From assembly GCA_030704615.1 (NCBI GenBank), contig JAKLZA010000330.1, positions 1 to 10,442 on the forward strand: a DNA stretch of 10,442 bases. The letters are read 5' to 3'. Under the pieces are notes generated by a model, which did not search any database, was not told where the DNA came from, and saw only the letters and a list, made by a program, of their open reading frames with translations. The DNA comes from Takakia lepidozioides. Its lineage: Eukaryota; Plantae; Bryophyta. The translations under genes were made by a program, and so were the position numbers. Numbering within the stretch: the first letter of the stretch is position 1; each line of letters starts with the position of its first letter. Shown here piece after piece: positions 1 to 10,442 of this stretch.

Positions 1-26
1 TAGCTGTCAAGTTATTTTACCACTAG

Positions 27-374
27 TGTGAAACTAGCTAGGAAATAGCTAGCTTTTACATATTGACATTTGGGATTGGCCCAAGTGTCAATCCAGGGGT
101 CAAGCAGATTTAGGCCCTGGAGTGGTTATCTTCACGGCAAGCGCGGGAGGCTCATCTTTCTCGAGTTGAGCCTCACCGCGCCTAGCTATGGCGCCGTAGT
201 GTGGATTCCCCATGGCGTGGGGTGCACTTGGCTTGACTTGTATTTGAGTGATGAGGTTATATATGCATGAGTTTATGCTTCAGCTTTGTGAGCTCGCATG
301 AGCTTGTGCTTGTATTCTTCTTCTTTATCACTCGAGAAAGATGAGCTCGTATCTATGAGTGCTAGATACGAGTT
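27..374 (+). other. Cluster of stem-loops; putative structured RNA (U5/5' leader of the element)
   Basis: Hand-identified stems: 27-40/46-60, 62-74/80-92, 92-103/110-121, 141-154/167-181, 243-256/323-336 enclosing 265-278/296-309, and 344-355/363-374. Imperfections are mostly G-U pairs on the + strand. Confidence 0.6.
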
Positions 375-1043
375 AGTTGTAGCACTTGTGGTTTTTGCTT
401 GAGAATGAGAGAAACCAAGTTGTTATGCAAGGAGCACCGTGGAGCTCTTGGTTGTTAGAAGCGGAGGCGATGTGGGTTACGAGGTGGTACCTTGGCATTC
501 GATCTTCAGCTTCAGAGATGAAAGCACCATACTGTAGGTAATTCCAGAGCACCTTGATGGTTTCAGATTGTGTACATGCATGAGCAAGCACGATTGGGAA
601 GAGGACCAGTCAAGAGCAGGTTATAGTGGCTTTGGTGGCAAAGCTGAGAACTGGACTTGGGAATGCGAGCTTTCATTGTGTGAAGGATTGCAAGACCAAG
701 CGAAAGGGCTGATTTGGCTTGGGGCAAATCAGTGCACTTTGTGGAGTATGGTGAGATTGGGTTTCAATCTCGAGCTTCAGCATTGAGAGGGCTCTTGTCA
801 TGGCGAGAGCAGGGCTGGAACAGGAGCTAAGAGGTGCGGCAAGGCCATGGAATGTGCACCTAGGGTTACAGAGCTTGGAAGAAGAGCTCTTGCACCACAA
901 GAGAAGTGTCTTGTGGCTGGAAATGTAAGCCTTAGGGTTTCAGGAGCTTGGCAAAGGCTATGGAGTGCTTAGTCTTGTCTTAGAGAGCATCAAGGAGCCA
1001 AGGAGCCAAGATAGGGGGCTGATATCTCTTGTGTGAAGAGGTT

Positions 1044-1460
1044 GCATGTGTGGAGCATGTATTCAGCTCATTGAAGCTTCCATCTTCAAGCTTGGAGGGC
1101 AAGCAAGGAAGAGGGAAGGGCTGACTTCCCTTATGTGAGGGCAAAAGCTTGCACTTTCAGGTGTGGGAGTGCAAGAAAGGAAGGAAGGGGCTGGTTTCCC
1201 TGTAGGGCATGTGGAGCATGCTTTCAGCATGCTGAAGCTTGTATTTTCAGGTTTGTGGGTGCAAGAAATGAAGCAAAGGAGCTGATTCTTTATGGTGAGA
1301 GTGGGGCATGTGTGGAGCATGCCTTCAGCCCATTGAGGCTCTTGTTTTCAAGCTTTAGAGAGCTAGAACGGAAGGTCTAGGGCTGGTTTCCACTTGGAGT
1401 GAAAGAAAAGCACTTGTAGGGCCTATGTGAGTTGGGGTTTCAACTTCAAGCTTGAAGGGA
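1044..1460. repeat. Degenerate dispersed/tandem repeat (~70-110 bp modules, about 4 copies)
   Basis: GCATGT(GT)GGAGCATG..TTCAGC...TGA(A/G)GCT starts at 1044, 1207 and 1306. Related AGCTT...TTCA(A/G)G...GCAAG...GCTG(A/G) modules occur at ~1075, ~1146, ~1236 and ~1337. Confidence 0.7.
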
Positions 1461-1831
1461 GCGCAACTCTTGAAGCAGCAGGTGTAGGGGGCTGGAATAG
1501 GCTCTAAGACAGATGCTATGGCCAAGGAGAGTGCTTGAATGAGTGCTCACAAGGGCTGGGAACCAGCAGGGCTTGGTTGTTTGCCATTGAGTTTAGTGGC
1601 GTGTTTGGGTAGGCTAAGTGAGAAAGAAGGCTTGGTTTGTGGGCAACCACCTCATGGCTTAGGGCTACTATGGTGGTGTGTGGGAGCCGAAAGAGCAAGG
1701 ATACCTTGCTGATTTCCTCACAGCCACCATAGCTCGGTGGAAAGAAGCCTAGAGTCCAAGAGACACAAACCCTAGCTTGGCGTGGCTAAACCCCTTGGAG
1801 AAATGGCTAAACTGCCAGAGCGGCCATGTGT

Positions 1832-3330
1832 GGGGCTGTGGCAAGCTGTGGCAAGCTGTGACGGGCTGTGACGGGCTGTGTCAGGCCTTGGCGAGCTGTG
1901 TGGGCTGTGACGGGCTGTGGCAAGCTTGAAGGCTGTGAGGGCAGTGACAGGCTGTGCCCTGTGCCCTGTGGGGCTGTGACGGGCTGTGTCAGGCTGTGAC
2001 AGGCTGTGCCAGTGGCCTTTTGGGGCTGTGACGGGCTGTGACAGGCTGTGCCCTGAGGCCTTGTGGGGCTGTGACGGGCTGTGACAGGCTGTGCCCATGG
2101 CCTTTGGGGCTGTGATGGCTGTGAGGGGCTGTGACAGGCCGTGCCTGAGGCCTTTGAGGCTGTGATGGGCTGTGACGGGCTGTGTCAGGCTTGTGGACAG
2201 GCTGTGACAGCCGTGCCTGAGGCCTTGAGGCTGTGACGGGCTGTGAGGGGCTGTGACAGGCCGTGCCCATGGCCTTTGGGGCTGTGACGGGCTGTGAGGG
2301 GCTGTGACAGGCCGTGCCTGAGCCTTTGAGGCTGTGACGGGCTGTGAGGGGCTGTGACAGGCCGTGCCCATGGCCTTTGGGGCTGTGGGGACGGGTGTGA
2401 GGGGCTGTGACAGGCCGTGCCTGAGGCCTTTGGGGCTGTGACGGGCTGTGAGGGGCTGTGACAGGCCGTGGCCTGAGGCCTTTGGGGCTGTGTGGGCTGT
2501 GACAGGCCGTGCCTGAGGCCTTTGAGGCTGTGACGGGCTGTGAGGGGCTGTGACAGGCCGTGCCCATGGCCTTTGGGGCTGTGACGGGCTGTGAGGGGCT
2601 GTGACAGGCCGTGCCTGAGGCCTTTGGGCTGTGACGGGCTGTGAGGGGCTGTGACAGGCCGTGCCTGAGGCCTTTGGGGCTGTGATGGGCTGTGACAGGC
2701 CGTGCCTGAGGCCTTTGAGGCTGTGACGGGGCTGTGAGGGGCTGTGACAGGCCGTGCCCATGGCCTTTGGGGCTGTGACGGGCTGTGAGGGGCTGTGACA
2801 GGCCGTGCCTGAGGCCTTTGGGCTGTGACGGGCTGTGAGGGGCTGTGACAGGCCGTGCCCATGGCCTTTGGGGCTGTGACGGGCTGTGAGGGGCTGTGAC
2901 AGGCCGTGCCTGAGGCCTTTGGGGCTGTGACGGGCTGTGAGGGGCTGTGACAGGCCGTGCCTGAGGCCTTTGGGGCTGTGACGGGCTGTGAGGGGCTGTG
3001 ACAGGCCGTGCCTGAGGCCTTTGGGCTGTGACGGGCTGTGAGGGGCTGTGACAGGCCGTGCCTGAGGCCTTTGGGGCTGTGATGGGCTGTGACATGCCGT
3101 GCCTGAGGCCTTTGAGGCTGTGACGGCTGTGAGGGCTGTGACACGCCGTGCCATGGCCTTTGGGGCTGTGACGGGCTGTGAGGGGCTGTGACAGGCCGCG
3201 CCTTAGGCCTTTGGGGCTGTTGACGGCTGTGAGGGGCTGTGACAGGCTGTGCCTGAGGCCTTTGAGGCTGGACGAGCTGTGAGGGGCTGTGACAGGCTGT
3301 GCCCAGTGGCCTGTGGACTGTGACGGCGTG
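1832..3330. repeat. G/T-rich minisatellite; 51-bp unit GGGGCTGTGACGGGCTGTGAGGGGCTGTGACAGGCCGTGCCTGAGGCCTTT built from 10-bp (G/C)GGGCTGTGA subunits; roughly 25-29 units
   Basis: Directly visible, e.g. consecutive units start at 2921 and 2972. The core (~2060-3300) is homogeneous and both edges are degenerate (1832-2050, 3300-3420). Linker variants are CCTGAGGCC and CCCATGGCC. Confidence 0.97.
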
Positions 3331-3603
3331 ACCAGTGAGCTGTGTGGGCCTGTGCTGGTCTGTGGTGGCCCGTGTTGACCTGTGGATGGCCTGTGCTGAC
3401 TTGTGGAGGCACTGGTGGACTAAGGACTGGCATGTGGTCTGGAAGGCCGAATTTTGAAGCTCGTGGAGGGCGGTTTGAGGAGTATCTTCATGATATTCCC
3501 ATGGTCATGCAAGTTCAGGTGTAGGCTATGTTAGGAACTTAGTATTCCAAACCATAAGCCGCAACAGGTTCTCTACCCGGTTACCTTGTGGAGAGGGGGT
3601 TAG

Positions 3604-3791
3604 GGACATGTTCATGACCGGTTGAGTGTCAACACGGAGGTGCCACTAGTTGCTGGGGACAGTGCCGGTTCGAGCACTAGCGATACTAGTGGGTACACGA
3701 GACGAGGTGTGCGGTTTAGGCCACCTTCACCTCCTGTGTCTTCCACGGAAGGTTCTGATTCGGATTGTGAATCAGGAGGCTCATACAGGCG
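3604..3791 (+). pseudogene. Possible frameshifted N-terminal extension of Gag
   Basis: The frame of ORF 3622 reads ...RRGVRFRPPSPPVSSTEGSDSDCE. Adding one A at 3770-3771 (GAA>GAAA) joins it to IRRLIQAVQVVSLPLLWDTMEEMYG in the gag frame. No homology evidence is available here. Confidence 0.35.
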
Positions 3792-6700
3792 GTGCAAGTT
3801 GTTTCTTTGCCATTGTTGTGGGACACAATGGAGGAGATGTATGGAGCTACCAAGGGGCCACGAAGGTACTCTGGGGCGGTGGGCACCATTGAGTTGGATG
3901 ATTTTATCCAAGAGTTTGATAGTTGGTGTGATTTGCAGCAAATGCGCAATCCACAACTATTTACGCCGTTCATGGCATGGAAAGGGCTGTTTCAGCACCT
4001 TGAGGGGCCGCCTATGGATGATTACCATGAGTTCAGGCGGGGGCATGAGGTTGAGATCGAGGAGTGGAGGATGTACTGGTCACCCGACTATGTCTCCATC
4101 ACTAGGGGCACTAGAGCCACGAGGGCAGTGGCTACACCTGCCGCTGCACCGGCAGCTTCAGCAAGCAGCAGTGGGACTGGTGGTACAGTAGCTACGACGT
4201 CCACCCAAGCCACTACCGCACCAGCACTAGCACCCGTGCCTGCCTTCAACCCTGTTGTGGAGTTCTTCGAAGAGTTGAGAGGGAACTACCAAGGGGTGAG
4301 GACAGAGAAGTTGCGGAGCTTGCAAGAGTTCCAACGGAAGCCGACCGAGAGCTTGAGGGAGGCTTTCACTCGCATGAGGCGCTTGATAAATGTAACCCAA
4401 GGGGTTACGGAAGCTCAGGCAGTCCAATTCTGGTATGGGATATTGGACAAGGAGCTGAGGAGAAGGGTGCGGGATGCAACTCTCCTACAAGCGGCCCAAC
4501 CCACCTTAGCAAATGTGTTTTTGCTGGCAGAGCGGATAGAGCTCAACATGGTGGAGGAACGAGTGGTCATGGTGGGATTTGCTAAGGAGACACCACGGGG
4601 TAGTGGTGCTCCTAGCCAACCACTACCTCAACGTGCTCAAGGCAACAAGGGGGCTCAGGTGAAGCTCAGGGAAGGGCAGAGAGGACCTCAAATGCAGGGG
4701 TCTCTCCCTTCATTTGCTGGCCAACAACGGGCGGATGTGGTGTGCTGGACATGTGGAGGACCCCATGTCAAGAAGGATTGCCCAGAGGGAGGCAAAGGGT
4801 CGGCACATGCACAGCCTGCACAGTTGCAGTGTGGGCATTGTGGCAAGCACGGGCATGGAGAGGCCCAGTGTTATAGTTTGCATCCTGAGTTGCGCCCAGG
4901 CCAGTTCCAAGGGAACAATGGTGGCCGGGGGCGAGGTGGAGCAGCCCAGAGAGGACGAGGTGGCCAGCCACGAGGTGCAGGCCAAGGGCAAGCTCAACGT
5001 GGCCAAGGACGCGGAGGTCAGGGTGTTGACCAAGGCATGGCCAACCGGCTTCAGCAGCTAGAGCAGAGGCTCGCTGCCATGGCTACAGCTCAGGTGGTAC
5101 CGGCTCTAAGGCCGGATGGTCCACCTCCTGCTCCTGAGGGAGGAGATATGGGAGGCATGGGATTCATGTGTGGAGCAGCACTACCACTAGTGCAGGTGGA
5201 GTCTGCTGCAGCCGTGACTCGAGGAGCAGCACGAGTTCCTGAGCCACGAGGTGCAGAGGTGGAGTTGGATCCACAGCGTGGGGAGGCAAGCCGTCAGGCT
5301 AGGCTTCCTCAGTCATTCACATTGGCGGAGACAGTGTCGACGCCATCCATGGCACCTAGTTCTCGCCCGACTATTACCGAGGCGGAGGTTACTATGCCAT
5401 TGGGGAGAGCTACACGGGCAGCACCACTACCTAGTGTTGCCAAGGCTACGGCAGCTAGTGTGCTGTTAGGAGCGGCCACATCTGTGTGCCAGGCTCCATT
5501 GTTCTCGGCTACCATGATTGCGACGCCGGGGATAAGACCAGCTGAGGTGTTCAGGCTGGCAGCTACACTCTGTGAGAGTGGGGAGGTTACTTCATCTTCT
5601 GCGGAGATAGTGGGAGGTGTAGTGCCGGAGGGATCCTCGGATTTGAGGGTCAAGACTGCCACGGCGGCGCCATGGCAAGCTGCAGCTGCCAGGTTGATGG
5701 AGCTGCCAGCTAGGCCAGCCATTGAGCGCGCCATGGTGACACCTGGAGTTGTCATGTTAGACAACCAGGATGGCATTTTCTGTTTGAGTGGACCGGCAGG
5801 CAAGAGGTACCGGCCACTGCGAGTCTTGTTGGACTCGGGAGCTCAGCCACTGATGCTGGGCAGAGCTGCTATTGCAGGCTTGGGCCTCACGGAGGCGGAT
5901 ATGGAGCCTTGTCCTTTCCAGATACAGACGTCTCTGGGAGGATCGGAGCAGGCTCGGGGCATGACACGGCATGAGTTGGCTATCAGACTACGGCCGGATC
6001 ACCCTACAGATGGCTCAGTGATGCGAGCCAAGGCCATTGTGACAGACGCAGTCTCATACGATGTCCTGGTTGGTGGGGCAGTGTTGTACCCCATGGGCTT
6101 CACCCTGGATTTTTGGGAGGAGTCAGCTTCCTATAGGCCTGCATGGCAGTCAGGGGAGGGCCGGCGTGTGCAGCTCCCTGTGACGTTCATAGGAGGAGTT
6201 GCGGTTGCCCAGCGAGGCAAGATGCCGACACTAGCAGCATTCACAGCGGCAGTGAGTTGGCCTAGAGAGTTGCTTGAGGGCAATGCTCATTCAGAGGATG
6301 TACCACCTCCGGGAGAGCAGGATGACATGTATGGTATGGCGGAGTTGCCTACCATGGTTGCTCAGACTCCATTGTGGGGCACGAGCAAGGATTTGCAGCG
6401 GGATGCTGATCGACGGGTGCAACAAGCCTGGGTGGAGGCTTTTGTACCGTCAAGAGAGGAGGAGAGTGTGGGGATTGCACCAGGACCACCTCAATTGTCT
6501 CCATTGGACACCACACCTATTGTGTGGCAGTCTCCGGATGAAGGCATTTGTCTTCTGGACTTGTTTGGCGGGATCAGCACCGGATTGGCTGCTGTGTTAC
6601 AGGCAGGTGTACGAGTTCGGCGTTACCTGTATGTGGAGAGGGATGAGACTGCACGACGCGTTTCACTTCGCCATGTTGCTCAGTTGGTGCAGCGGTACCC

Positions 6701-6800
6701 TGAGTTGTTGTCGGTGTCTGCAATTTGGATATCAGCAGGCCTTGCCAGCAGACATTTCGTTGCTGGGGGCGCAGGATTTGGAGCGGGTTGGCTCCATTGA
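3792..6800 (+). CDS. gag: Gag-protease polyprotein, continuing into the N-terminal part of the DNA methyltransferase (first in-frame ATG at 3828; true reading leaves this frame at ~6726)
   Basis: 1002-codon ORF. It has a capsid-like region with an MHR-like LQEFQRKPTESLREAFTRM (4320-4376), two zinc knuckles, an RGG tract, the protease active site LLDSGA, and then MTase motif I LDLFGGISTG. Confidence 0.9.
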   Translation: MQVVSLPLLWDTMEEMYGATKGPRRYSGAVGTIELDDFIQEFDSWCDLQQMRNPQLFTPFMAWKGLFQHLEGPPMDDYHEFRRGHEVEIEEWRMYWSPDYVSITRGTRATRAVATPAAAPAASASSSGTGGTVATTSTQATTAPALAPVPAFNPVVEFFEELRGNYQGVRTEKLRSLQEFQRKPTESLREAFTRMRRLINVTQGVTEAQAVQFWYGILDKELRRRVRDATLLQAAQPTLANVFLLAERIELNMVEERVVMVGFAKETPRGSGAPSQPLPQRAQGNKGAQVKLREGQRGPQMQGSLPSFAGQQRADVVCWTCGGPHVKKDCPEGGKGSAHAQPAQLQCGHCGKHGHGEAQCYSLHPELRPGQFQGNNGGRGRGGAAQRGRGGQPRGAGQGQAQRGQGRGGQGVDQGMANRLQQLEQRLAAMATAQVVPALRPDGPPPAPEGGDMGGMGFMCGAALPLVQVESAAAVTRGAARVPEPRGAEVELDPQRGEASRQARLPQSFTLAETVSTPSMAPSSRPTITEAEVTMPLGRATRAAPLPSVAKATAASVLLGAATSVCQAPLFSATMIATPGIRPAEVFRLAATLCESGEVTSSSAEIVGGVVPEGSSDLRVKTATAAPWQAAAARLMELPARPAIERAMVTPGVVMLDNQDGIFCLSGPAGKRYRPLRVLLDSGAQPLMLGRAAIAGLGLTEADMEPCPFQIQTSLGGSEQARGMTRHELAIRLRPDHPTDGSVMRAKAIVTDAVSYDVLVGGAVLYPMGFTLDFWEESASYRPAWQSGEGRRVQLPVTFIGGVAVAQRGKMPTLAAFTAAVSWPRELLEGNAHSEDVPPPGEQDDMYGMAELPTMVAQTPLWGTSKDLQRDADRRVQQAWVEAFVPSREEESVGIAPGPPQLSPLDTTPIVWQSPDEGICLLDLFGGISTGLAAVLQAGVRVRRYLYVERDETARRVSLRHVAQLVQRYPELLSVSAIWISAGLASRHFVAGGAGFGAGWLH
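4743..4871 (+). other. Gag nucleocapsid: two CCHC zinc knuckles
   Basis: CWTCGGPHVKKDC (CX2CX3HX4C, 4743-4781) and CGHCGKHGHGEAQC (CX2CX4HX4C, 4830-4871), followed by an RGG-rich tract (GGRGRGGAAQRGRGG, ~4920-5025). Confidence 0.9.
5790..6130 (+). other. Retropepsin-type aspartic protease domain
   Basis: RVLLDSGAQPLMLG (catalytic Asp codon 5832-5834), flap-like IQTSLGGS, and C-terminal YDVLVGGAVLYPMG (retropepsin DxLxG-type motif). Boundaries are approximate. Confidence 0.88.
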
Positions 6801-7510
6801 TCTGGTAGTGGCAGGTTGGCCCTGCCAAGGGCATTCATCAGCCGGGCATGGCAATGGATTGCGAGACTCGAGGTCGGGTCTGTTTTGGGAGATGGTGCGG
6901 GTTTTGCGCCACTTGCAGCTTCATCAAGCTGTATCTCCAGCATACATCTTGGAGAATGTGCCACTGATGGGCGATTCTCGGGCCAGGGTGATGGCCAGTG
7001 TGCATCAAGTCCGGTCGTGGCTTGGGTCAGCAGTGTTGCTAGATGCAGCTACAGTGGGGTCACGGGCTCATCGTCCACGGCTATGGTGGACTAACATGAT
7101 GCCACCCGCACTGCTCAAGCGTGCATTTGATGGGGTGCAGCGGCCAGCACATCTCACAGTGGATAACATTCTGGACACAGGAGGCAGTCTCAACGTGTGA
7201 GACACGATGACCGTTCGCCTTTGGCAGTGGTCAACAAGGTGGGTCAACCACGAGCAGCATTACCTACACTGCTCAGCTTCCCAGGATCGCATGCTTTCCG
7301 GGATAGTGGACCTGGCCTCCTGTGGGATGCTCAGTTGCAGCAGTTAGTGGAGCCTAATGCTGACGAGCGTGAGCGGGCAATGGGTTTTACCACTGGTACC
7401 ACGGCGGTGTCGTCTCTTTCTGAGGCATCACGTCGTCAAGTGTTGGGGCAAGCAATGGATCTCAATTGCTTGACCTGGATTATCAGCTTGGCTCTAGCTG
7501 AGCAACGCAG
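6543..7510 (+). pseudogene. DNMT3-like C5-cytosine DNA methyltransferase domain within the polyprotein; two frameshifts in this copy
   Basis: Catalytic motifs occur in canonical order: I LDLFGGISTG (6555-6584), II YLYVERD, IV IDLVVAGWPCQGHS (PC at 6820-6825), SGLFWE, VI YILENV (ENV 6952-6960), VIII AHRPRLWWTN (7066-7095), IX ERERAMGF (from 7365), X RRQVLGQAMD (~7431-7460). The domain is spread over three reading segments: to ~6725, 6727-7181, and from 7182. Confidence 0.92.
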
Positions 7511-7787
7511 AGTGCGGAATACACTTCCCTCAATGGTCTCTCTGCCTACCGAGACGGTACAGGCAGTGAGTGGGGGCGAGCATATGAGGACCACGGGGTG
7601 CATGCATCCATGGCACACGTGGGAGGTGCTCGAGGTTCAGAGGGAGTTGGCAGCCAAGGCGGCTGTGATGGATGAGGTTGGGGATTCTTCTCGAGTTGAG
7701 GAGGTCCTCAAGGATGAGATGATGGGGCAGGATGATGCCTTGTCATTGACTGAGCAGGTAGGGAGTACTGCTCAAGAGGTTGCAGCA

Positions 7788-7796
7788 TAGCAACCA
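7788..7796 (+). promoter_or_regulatory. Candidate programmed stop-codon readthrough signal TAG-CAA-CCA (UAG CARYYA)
   Basis: A single in-frame TAG lies in the linker between DNMT and RT. The next six bases match the established TMV-type CARYYA leaky-stop consensus. The alternative is a CAG>TAG nonsense mutation. Confidence 0.4.
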
Positions 7797-10442
7797 CGGG
7801 ACGCGTCCTCTACCTCTAAGCCCACTGGACTTAAGGTTGTAGTTACGGAGGACAATTGGGAGCCTGACATTGGACCCATTGTCACCGGAGGAGAGAGACG
7901 ACGTATACGGCGGTTCCTGAGGGCTTACAGGAATTGCTTTGCCTTCAGTTTGAAGGACTTGGGAGCACTGAAGGGTCAAGAGATCCGTATTGAGTTGGCC
8001 ACTGACACGCCAATCTTTCGGAGACCCTATAGATACAGTGACATGGAGAGGTCTTTGATTCAGATGAGGACTCAAGATCTCTGGGAGGCAGGTTTGGTGG
8101 AGCTCTCTGGTGGAGAGTATGCTTCAGCCACAGTGATGCCAGCCAAGAAGGATGTCTATGGCAATTGGACGGAGAGACGTATGTGCGGTGATTACCGGCC
8201 TGTAAATCGTCAGACCAAGTCCGATAAGTATGCCATGCCAACACCAGAGGAGATCTTTGATGCCATCGGGCATGCTAAGGCCTTTAGCACTTTGGATTTA
8301 CGATCCGGATATCACCAGTTGCCAATCAAGGAGGCGGACAAGCAGAAGACGGCATTCTGGGGGATCAATGAGCACGGCAAGGATTGCCTATATCAGTGGC
8401 GGTTCTTACCATTTGGGCTTAAGAATGCTCCTGCAGAGTTTCAGAGAGTCATGGATAGGATTCTAGCAGGGGTGGACTTTGCTCGGTGCTACATAGATGA
8501 CATCATCATCTTTAGTGTTACGATGGAGGAGCATGAGAGACACCTTCAGGTGGTATTGGAGCGCTTGAGAGCGCACGGATTGAAGTTGCATCCGGGGAAG
8601 TGCAAGTTTTTCCACAACCAGATTGAGTATCTGGGTCACATGATATATCCTGGAGGATTGGGGGTACAGCAGACTAAGGTAGAGGCCATTGCACAAATTC
8701 CACGCCCCACGGATGTGAGCCGAGTTCGAGCTTTCATGGGGTTGGCAAACTATTATAGACGGTTTGTCAAGGGATTTAGTACCATTGCAAAGGCTCTAAC
8801 CAAGCTGACCAAGGTGGACCAGGAGTGGCAGTGGGAAGATGAGCAGGAACGAGCTTTTCAAGAGCTCAAGGCGAGGTTGACCTCGGCGCCTATCTTGAGA
8901 CGACCTATCAGGGGGCGTCCCTTTCAGCTGCATACGGATTGGAGCATGCTGGGGCTTGGAGCGGTGCTCACACAGGTGGATGATGAGGGAAGAGAGTTCG
9001 TAGTGGCTTACGCTAGCCGCTCGAACAACGCTGCAGAGGCTAAGTACAGCTCATATGAGGGAGAGTGCTTAGCTGCAGTGTGGGCCGTGGCACACTTCAG
9101 GTGCTATCTATACGGCAATCTTTTCACCCTTGTCACGGATCACCAGCCACTCAAGTGGTTGATGGAGTCAGACAAGCTTACAGGGAAGCTTGCACGGTGG
9201 GCACTTATACTCCAGGAGTATGACTTTCAGGTTGTGCATCGACCGGGTTTGGTCAATCGGGATGCGGATGGATTGAGTCGCAATCCATGCATGAGCCAGC
9301 AGGATGACACTGGAGCTCGGTGGCATGGTGAGACGGACGAGGAGATGGTGCCGGGATGGCACGCATCTGCATTTTTGTGTATCTTGGCATCGGGAGGTCA
9401 GATTGGACCTACAACAGGGATGACTGTAGACGGAGTGTCTGAGGACCCTGAGGCTAGTGATGAGCTAGGTGGTGCCAGAGATATACATGAGGATTCGGCT
9501 GTGTTGGACTACCTCCGCACGGGAGACACGGCAGCCATTGTGACTGCCAGGGAGAGGGATCGGATCCTGCAACGAGCCAAGAGGTTCAAGTGGGAGGGGA
9601 TACACCTACTTCGAGTGTGGGAGGATGGTCGGGTGAGGATTGTGCCTCACCCCACACAGCGTGCACGGTTAGTGCGGCATGCCCATGAGGAGTTGGGGCA
9701 TTTTGGAGTGCGACGCACTCACAGTTTACTGCAGGGGCAGTATTGGTGGCGTGGTATGCATACAGAGGTGCAACAGTTTGTGGCTAGGTGCATGGTGTGT
9801 GACAGGGTGCGTGCTTCATTCAACGCCCCTACACCACAGTTGCATCATTTACCAATCATGGGATTAGGCTACAGGTGGAGTCTTGACTTCGCAGGACCGT
9901 TGCCACTGACTATGCGCCACCACAGATATGTGTTGGTGATGGTGGAGCACTTCTCCAAGTGGATTGAGTTGGTTCCATTGCCTGACAAGGCTAGTGAGGG
10001 GGCTGCGTATGCATTCTTGGATCGTGTGCTTAGCCGATTTGGTGCTCCAGCTGAGGTACTCACGGACCAAGGGAGAGAGTTCTTGGGGGAGTTTCAGGCT
10101 TTGTGTGATAAAGCCTTGATAGACCACCGCACCACTTCTCGGGATCATCCTGAGGCCGATGGCTTAGCAGAGAGAGTTGTTCAGACGGTGAAGAGGGGTT
10201 TGCGCAAGTATGGCTTGCAGAAGGGACACCTAGGAGATTGGGATCTTCAGGTTCCTTGGTTAGCCATGGGCTACAGGTTCAGCAAAGCCTCCTTCTCACC
10301 ATATTTCCTTCTCTTTGGCCGAGAGCCGGATTTGCCTGCAGCCATTCGTAGGGACACTGCTCAAGTCCTTAACCTTGACGATCCGGACATGTGGGTACGT
10401 GCATGTGATCAGCGTGCAGAGTTGTTCAAGAAAGTCATGCCC
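7791..10442 (+). CDS. pol: Pol: reverse transcriptase - RNase H - integrase; 884 uninterrupted codons, open at the window end, in frame with the upstream DNMT C-terminal segment across the TAG at 7788-7790
   Basis: Manual translation found no stop. RT: RMCGDYRPVN, FSTLDLRSGYHQ, LPFGLKNAPAEFQR, YIDDII, KCKF, EYLGH. RNase H: FQLHTDWS...GAVL...VAYASR...EGECLAAVWA...TDHQPL...DADGLSR. Integrase: HHCC plus DDE. It is absent from the ORF track, presumably because it has no stop codon inside the window. Confidence 0.95.
7980..8650 (+). other. Reverse transcriptase domain
   Basis: MCGDYR at 8181, LDLRSGYHQ at 8292, catalytic YIDD at 8490-8501. Boundaries are approximate. Confidence 0.95.
8922..9281 (+). 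other. Ty3/Gypsy-type RNase H domain
   Basis: TDWS (Asp 8937-8939), YSSYEGECLA, TDHQPL and DADGLSR supply the D-E-D-D catalytic set. Confidence 0.93.
9684..10442 (+). other. Integrase (HHCC zinc finger + DDE core), C-terminus beyond the window
   Basis: HEELGH (9684-9701), CMVC (9789-9800), WSLDFAGP (Asp 9885), LTDQG (Asp 10065), HPEADGLAER (Glu 10170). There are 34 residues between the second D and the E. Confidence 0.94.

Follow-up and report, generated by a model that had tools for sequence, protein, structure and literature searches.

KnitGypsy-Dnmt3 of Klebsormidium nitens is a Ty3/Gypsy retrotransposon with a Dnmt3 cytosine methyltransferase domain in its Pol open reading frame (ORF), described as an acquisition of the K. 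nitens lineage (de Mendoza et al. 2018, PMC5890265). A comparable element is present in the bryophyte Takakia lepidozioides, in contig JAKLZA010000330.1 (assembly GCA_030704615.1), of which positions 1 to 10,442 (10.4 kb, hereafter the window) represent the 5' part of one Ty3/Gypsy element on the plus strand; the precedent for such retrotransposons named in the initial annotation of this sequence is borne out. The Takakia element resembles KnitGypsy-Dnmt3, as published, in its intronless, unpermuted Dnmt3-type domain, in purifying selection and in the Gypsy gene order, but differs in that the methyltransferase (DNMT) is outside the open frame of the reverse transcriptase (RT), a conserved stop codon leaving it on the side of Gag and the protease (PR) in the branch that includes the window. 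In other branches (P0041, P0065, P0117 and L052), DNMT and RT share one open frame, as in KnitGypsy-Dnmt3. Further differences from the published account are the relatives in liverworts and Sphagnum and in Closterium, Tetraselmis, Scenedesmus and Cymbomonas, and a second domain order in which DNMT stands between RNase H (RH) and the integrase (IN), RT-RH-DNMT-IN-PHD. EpiLTRs (bioRxiv 10.64898/2026.05.21.726589) are likewise long terminal repeat elements that pair a methyltransferase with a chromatin-reader domain, but they carry DAM, a DNMT4-sister enzyme and a chromodomain, and the preprint regards Gypsy-DNMT3 as a separate acquisition.

A DNMT3-bearing Gypsy element is thus already published for K. 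nitens, and what appears to be new here is the Gag-side stop, the predicted self-priming and the target-duplicated ends. The accessible text of PMC5890265 makes no mention of a stop, self-priming, target duplications or PHD in KnitGypsy-Dnmt3, and the accessible REXdb descriptions of plant Gypsy clades (chromovirus, OTA, Phygy, Selgy) include no Marchantia, Klebsormidium or PHD. In the accessible literature, including 10.1101/363937, PMC11982613, PMC10508981, PMC12344493 and PMC6317226, neither such bryophyte elements nor the stop were found, nor any account of DNMT3-Gypsy elements that self-prime, have split ends with target duplications or keep a stop on the Gag side, with the proviso that figures, supplements (the trees in PMC12344493 and in the 2026 preprint speak of 'streptophytes') and subscription papers may hold one.

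All the C5 methyltransferase motifs named in the initial annotation are where it had placed them, in the order I (6555-6584), II (6624-6644), IV with PC (6799-6831), VI with ENV (6943-6963), VIII (7063-7095), IX (7365-7388) and X (7443-7466), coordinates that bear out a linear arrangement, as opposed to the permuted one of DRM enzymes. A profile search identifies a significant match of the middle piece of the domain to Pfam DNA_methylase (E 7.3e-14). The best match of the window piece among PDB sequences is DNMT3A (E 2.5e-6), followed by DNMT3B/C, and that of an unbroken relative, P0007, is DNMT3A as well (E 6e-12); DRM and bacterial enzymes score below DNMT3 among solved sequences. A Foldseek search started with the AlphaFold model of the relative P0021 (mean predicted local distance difference test score, pLDDT, 58.9) also puts DNMT3A on top (E 2e-14), so that the resemblance to DNMT3 noted earlier extends to the fold, as far as this model goes. 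The domain is intronless and unpermuted, and both the window and aligned relatives have the residues for binding S-adenosylmethionine (SAM) as well as those of PC, ENV and RxR. By its motifs and best matches, the window domain is a linear DNMT3-type methyltransferase.

This methyltransferase is almost certainly a selected part of the element. The ORF at 3771-6800 runs from Gag, with its two knuckle-like motifs, through the protease into motifs I-II of the methyltransferase, which agrees with the initial annotation; the reading frame is then interrupted near 6725, before motifs IV, VI and VIII, and near 7179, before motifs IX-X, and reaches a TAG at 7788-7790. Downstream of the TAG, the unchanged frame continues into RT, RH and IN up to the window end, the Ty3/Gypsy order, as identified with Pfam. 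In all four public sequencing runs, sister contigs carry an indel relative to the window at each of the two breaks, and relatives are open; the two frameshifts are private to this copy. A single 2754-nt contig spans 6454-9172, and none of the joints listed for contigs of the four runs skips the domain. In the integrase, near 10286, sister contigs of runs X1 and X5 have loose ends, a hint that this copy differs there too in some minor way.

The middle piece of the domain is matched by 50 proteins among 1118 candidates, the best of which are 63-77% identical and include proteins of Marchantia, Calypogeia and Sphagnum, so that the occurrence in land plants suspected in the initial annotation has named representatives. 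In Marchantia, four proteins annotated as hypothetical, P0250, P0251, P0257 and P0258 (Mp_Vg00370, Mp_Vg00540, Mp_5g06330 and Mp_5g06860), are unbroken Gag-PR-DNMT ORFs of 1280-1281 aa; two of them, judging from the Mp_Vg names, presumably map to the V sex chromosome. Metagenomes provide the loci L001-L080, the best 80 of 312 confirmed stretches; because many of these repeat the same insertion, sequence families were counted instead. In these 80 loci, the order is Gag-PR-DNMT-RT-RH-IN-PHD as far as each extends, with DNMT after PR and/or before RT in most, the exceptions being L053, L056 and L072, which are of the RT-DNMT-PHD type. The Gag high-scoring segment pairs are 49-75% identical in close loci, and a PHD finger follows the integrase at its C-terminal side in relatives.

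Each of the five L001-type loci compared gives, for DNMT, a nonsynonymous rate (dN) of 0.18-0.20 with saturated synonymous rate (dS) and a dN/dS of 0.05-0.06 where it can be computed, far from the ratio of about 1 that would have spoken against an integral domain; RT and integrase show a similar pattern. In this between-family comparison with saturated dS, the DNMT is under purifying selection. The within-family variants classified among those listed comprise 20 synonymous and 18 other changes (n=38), from which no selection test was drawn.

The phylogenetic evidence comes from a quick DNMT tree, with distant IMG/VR methyltransferases (E 1e-4 to 1e-12) as the outgroup, and a midpoint-rooted RT tree, from which the outgroup rows P0141, P0144 and P0164 were left out for length. 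In the DNMT tree, the window groups with Marchantia, Calypogeia and L001-type loci (13 rows, support 99 in the SH-like approximate likelihood ratio test, SH-aLRT), and in the RT tree it has the same neighbours in nested sets of 5, 6 and 10 rows with support of 95-99; a Coleochaete scutata transcript falls just outside this group. Such neighbours point to a bryophyte-like host. In these reconstructions, the DNMT tree follows the RT tree in placing the window. The RT-RH tree places the window and the K. nitens element in one 24-row clade (SH-aLRT 93), and in the DNMT tree both are among 70 element-borne rows, apart from 7 viral enzymes, with an unresolved base. The two trees agree on the neighbours of the window; the DNMT tree is made up of element-borne and viral rows, with no host DNMT3 among them.

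The feature that sets the window's branch apart is the stop between DNMT and RT. The initial annotation, which overlooked it, had the C-terminal part of the methyltransferase in frame with RT-RH-IN; the frame is indeed shared, but the TAG intervenes, and it is a family-wide trait, so that in this branch the methyltransferase is to be viewed as a Gag-PR-side domain and not, as first thought, an integral pol domain. As to the intact ORFs that the initial annotation proposed to look for, relatives contain an unbroken Gag-PR-DNMT part; the stop separates it from RT in the branch of the window, while in others DNMT and RT are joined in a single open frame. No variant at 7788-7790 is listed in the four runs at a 2% threshold; position 7791 is variable in one low-depth contig. 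A stop followed by CARYY is found between DNMT and RT in 39 of the 47 loci L001-L047 (three of the others end before the site, three are rearranged there and two lack the pattern) and in 4 of the 33 loci L048-L080. These cases are spread over five sequence families and four different hexamers, with TAG CAACCA in the window and L043, TAG or TAA CAACCC in the L001 type, TAG CAGTTA in L044 and L046, and TAA CAATCA in L064 and L073-75; a stop would be followed by CARYYA at random with a probability of about 0.001.

In eight homologous proteins the C-terminus is 91-97 residues past motif X, the spacing between domain and C-terminus is the same in five Marchantia proteins, and the Gag-PR-DNMT proteins of Marchantia and Calypogeia terminate at the place that matches the window TAG. 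The distances from DNMT to RT (472, 475, 535 and 592 nt) all differ by multiples of three, and the 83 codons past the stop contain no Met (the first is at 8043) and have a dN/dS of 0.24-0.31. The stop looks derived, judging from the quick tree, because all stop-bearing rows are within one 17-row DNMT clade of moderate support (87).

In plants, the type I signal for readthrough is UAG-CARYYA, exemplified by tobacco mosaic virus (TMV) (PMC5382211); a dual-reporter assay in plants is reported to have given 32% readthrough for it and lower values for UAA (PMC2754532); the gag-pol stop of murine leukaemia virus (MuLV) is read through at 5% (PMC2194720). The present arrangement is analogous to these and to the pol-env stop of soybean SIRE1 (PMC2194720, PMC2829016) in that an in-frame stop with a context of the CARYYA type parts an abundant from a scarce product, but unlike the MuLV gag/pol and SIRE1 pol/env stops, it is located after Gag-PR-DNMT and before RT. 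Synthesis of RT-RH-IN-PHD by readthrough of the conserved stop is, from these sequence patterns, very probable, and by analogy Gag-PR-DNMT would be made in 3- to 20-fold excess over RT-IN.

On balance, a chain of events that begins with this stop is somewhat more likely than not as the function. The Gag-PR-DNMT protein would build the particle, low-rate readthrough of TAG-CAACCA would supply RT-RH-IN-PHD, each particle would hold the methyltransferase at the Gag level, and the packaged enzyme would methylate CG sites of the new cDNA before integration; the likely benefit is that the copy would arrive with host-like CG methylation. CpG at codon junctions is at 0.30-0.34 of expectation and CHG at 0.94-0.96, a depletion that fits CG methylation by the enzyme. 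Several points weigh against this chain. Host methylation could also explain the CG depletion; the largest locus family (L001) has CAACCC, one letter from the CARYYA consensus; and the model of P0021 is mediocre (mean pLDDT 58.9). L049, L052 and L065, as well as P0041, P0065 and P0117, have no stop and a single open DNMT-RT frame, and P0072 is, with Closterium P0117, among the stop-less branches, so Gag-level dosage is not needed for the lineage as a whole. Furthermore, the gag-pol stop of Candida Tca2 was not read through in tests, and no de novo methylation by KnitGypsy-Dnmt3 was detected when it was assayed in yeast, a result that its authors call inconclusive (PMC5890265).

Of the other explanations, the one that survives best, though it is unlikely, is that the main action of the abundant enzyme takes place once the element has integrated, or elsewhere than in the particle, in trans on sister copies or host chromatin, in copy-number control or silencing. 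Synthesis at the Gag level would be far above the need of one or two cDNAs, and a PHD finger is also present in relatives; on the other hand, fusion to Gag, which leads to encapsidation in retroelements, points to the particle. De Mendoza et al. name a self-slowing role as a possibility, but the methylome of K. nitens is described as ordinary and plant-like (PMC5890265).

Less probable is a reading that accepts the domain and its place on the Gag side but has RT-RH-IN expressed from a spliced RNA, the TAG serving as acceptor, or from a transcript that starts internally. The TAG does end in AG, the L001 family has TTTGC(A/G)TAG upstream, and Tca2 provides a case of a gag-pol stop without readthrough. 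However, TAA cannot be an acceptor, and it is present in all four loci of one family (L064, L073-75) and in 9 close loci, which speaks against splicing; the downstream hexamer varies, yet within CARYY; and, with no Met in the 84 codons after the stop, internal initiation there would truncate RT.

Slightly more improbable still is retention of the domain as a non-catalytic DNA-binding or structural piece of the Gag polyprotein. This would accord with the lack of detected activity of the K. nitens Gypsy enzyme in yeast, but none of the residues for SAM binding, PC, ENV and RxR is missing from the window or aligned relatives, and related DIRS-borne Dnmt3 domains are reported to be active on CG (PMC5890265). 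Finally, a one-off insertion or assembly chimera, for which the two breaks within the domain of the window copy might be taken to speak, has a negligible probability and is contradicted by the sister contigs with their bridging contig and listed joints, none of which omits the domain, by a domain order that recurs in dozens of loci and in proteins from several named genera, by dN/dS and by the congruent trees, so that the domain is inherited, as the initial annotation held.

The predicted features of the window are collected in Table 1.

Table 1. Predicted features of the Takakia lepidozioides element in the window
Feature	Position	Strand	Basis and remarks
5' terminal repeat A	5..330	+	starts TGTCA like A repeats of relatives, ends CA; end set by the adjoining self-complementary site; 3' copy beyond the window
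Transcript start / self-primer segment	150..166	+	pairs perfectly with 330-346 over 17 nt
Self-priming primer-binding site, no tRNA-type TGG site	330..346	+	same arrangement, other letters, in L039 and L052
GC-rich tandem array, 5' leader	1833..3407	+	10-bp subunit, higher periods of 51/101 bp
Gag, two Cys/His knuckle-like motifs (4743-4781, 4830-4871)	3828..5100	+	first Met of the ORF at 3828; Pfam Retrotrans_gag E 0.006, weak, under cut-off
Aspartic protease, LLDSGA 5826-5843, Gag frame	5745..6155	+	Pfam Asp_protease_2 E 0.052 (weak); kept upstream of DNMT in loci
DNMT3-like C5 cytosine methyltransferase	6540..7505	+	Pfam, PDB, motifs; this copy broken near 6725 and 7179
In-frame TAG then CAACCA (type I readthrough context CARYYA)	7788..7796	+	kept in relatives
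Reverse transcriptase (YIDD 8490-8501) and RNase H	7950..9230	+	Pfam RVT_1 E 3e-33, RT_RNaseH E 1e-35
DDE integrase (H2C2 finger, core), truncated where the window ends	9642..10442	+	Pfam Integrase_H2C2 E 2e-16, rve E 1e-13

The ends of the element suggest an unusual replication cycle. Against the perfect 17-nt pairing of 150-166 with 330-346, the longest pairing in 200 shuffles is 9 nt. Among 16 other loci, the self-complementary site is at least 15 nt long in 5, 10-11 nt in 5 and at most 8 nt in 6, and two other families have the same arrangement with different letters; a TATA-like box is located about 30 nt upstream of the self-primer segment in L052, with none evident in the window. By analogy, self-priming of the Tf1 type would be expected: in Tf1/sushi and in plant Tcn1/TAR, a site after the repeat is complementary to a segment inside the 5' repeat (PMC7175516, PMC6317226), although pairing here involves 15-17 nt compared with 11, relatives have a PHD finger in place of the chromodomain, and the terminal repeats are split. 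The GC-rich array is about 1.5 kb long, and its units hold TGACA/TGTGAC, resembling the terminal motif.

Split repeats of the form A-body-purine tract-B-A-B are found in the relatives L034/L035, L039, L051, L052 and L065, the ends of which start with TGTCA and finish with GACA; the B|A joint consists of GACA, two bases and T(G/A)TCATG in all 11 loci examined. This layout resembles the A1-internal-B1-A2-B2 direct repeats of DIRS (PMC8969392), and KnitGypsy-Dnmt3 itself has DIRS-like A-coding-B-A-B repeats (Fig. 4c legend of PMC5890265); in the present group the layout is seen in relatives, the 3' end of the window element lying beyond the stretch. Unlike DIRS, which is described as using a tyrosine recombinase without target duplication (PMC8969392), these elements have a DDE integrase, and a 4-bp target duplication flanks four of five independent insertions of relatives, the four observed duplications not fitting the NCGN preference of Phygy. 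The combination of split repeats and target duplications suggests integration of an opened circle: the product of reverse transcription would be flanked on either side by [B-A], and what is integrated would be a circular permutation of a two-repeat circle, opened at one B|A joint. A broader scenario is tentative and, taken whole, rather doubtful, namely that this is a Gypsy lineage of great age in green plants, whose expansion continues in land plants of the bryophyte kind, and that it self-primes, packages DNMT3 at the Gag level by means of a leaky stop, and integrates a pre-methylated two-repeat circle, not a linear cDNA, through a PHD-guided DDE integrase acting at an internal CA-nn-TG.

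At a threshold of E 1e-30, a profile search yields 458 clusters; the best 150 were inspected. The 235 domain-bearing proteins comprise 69 PR-DNMT or DNMT-RT, 80 RH-DNMT or DNMT-IN, 85 with the domain only and one PR-DNMT-IN. Named members come from K. nitens, Closterium, Tetraselmis, Scenedesmus and Cymbomonas; in K. nitens, KFL_013780020 is PR-DNMT, and KFL_013780010, adjacent in numbering and from a contig of equal length, is RT-RH-IN with a zinc finger. Going by these assignments, the lineage covers bryophytes, charophytes and chlorophytes. The second architecture, RT-RH-DNMT-IN-PHD, is represented by P0044, P0269, P0315 (from the chlorophyte Scenedesmus) and L053 within the large group of 80 proteins, and its DNMTs group together with Cymbomonas in the quick tree (26 rows, SH-aLRT 95); the midpoint-rooted RT tree does not join the RT-RH-DNMT-IN and PR-DNMT-RT groups as one clade. 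The Coleochaete scutata transcript, P0053, encodes an RT-RH-IN-PHD ORF that is 69% identical over RT-IN, so a close algal relative is transcribed. P0185 (P0056 cluster), an RT-IN-PHD ORF of the family deposited as uncultured Synechococcales cyanobacterium, probably represents plant DNA in a metagenome.

With members in chlorophytes, charophytes and bryophytes, the family calls for a revision of the published view, in which the domain was acquired in the lineage of K. nitens. A loss of transposon methylases at the origin of land plants has also been proposed (PMC6338049), and the bryophyte members narrow this idea, though tracheophytes are what is named there. The split repeats and target duplications point to an unusual substrate of the DDE integrase, and the conserved stop indicates that dosage matters in the window's branch, where the amount of enzyme would follow Gag and not Pol. 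Because Marchantia polymorpha, a genetic model, has unbroken Gag-PR-DNMT ORFs, the role of DNMTs carried by retrotransposons becomes testable there.

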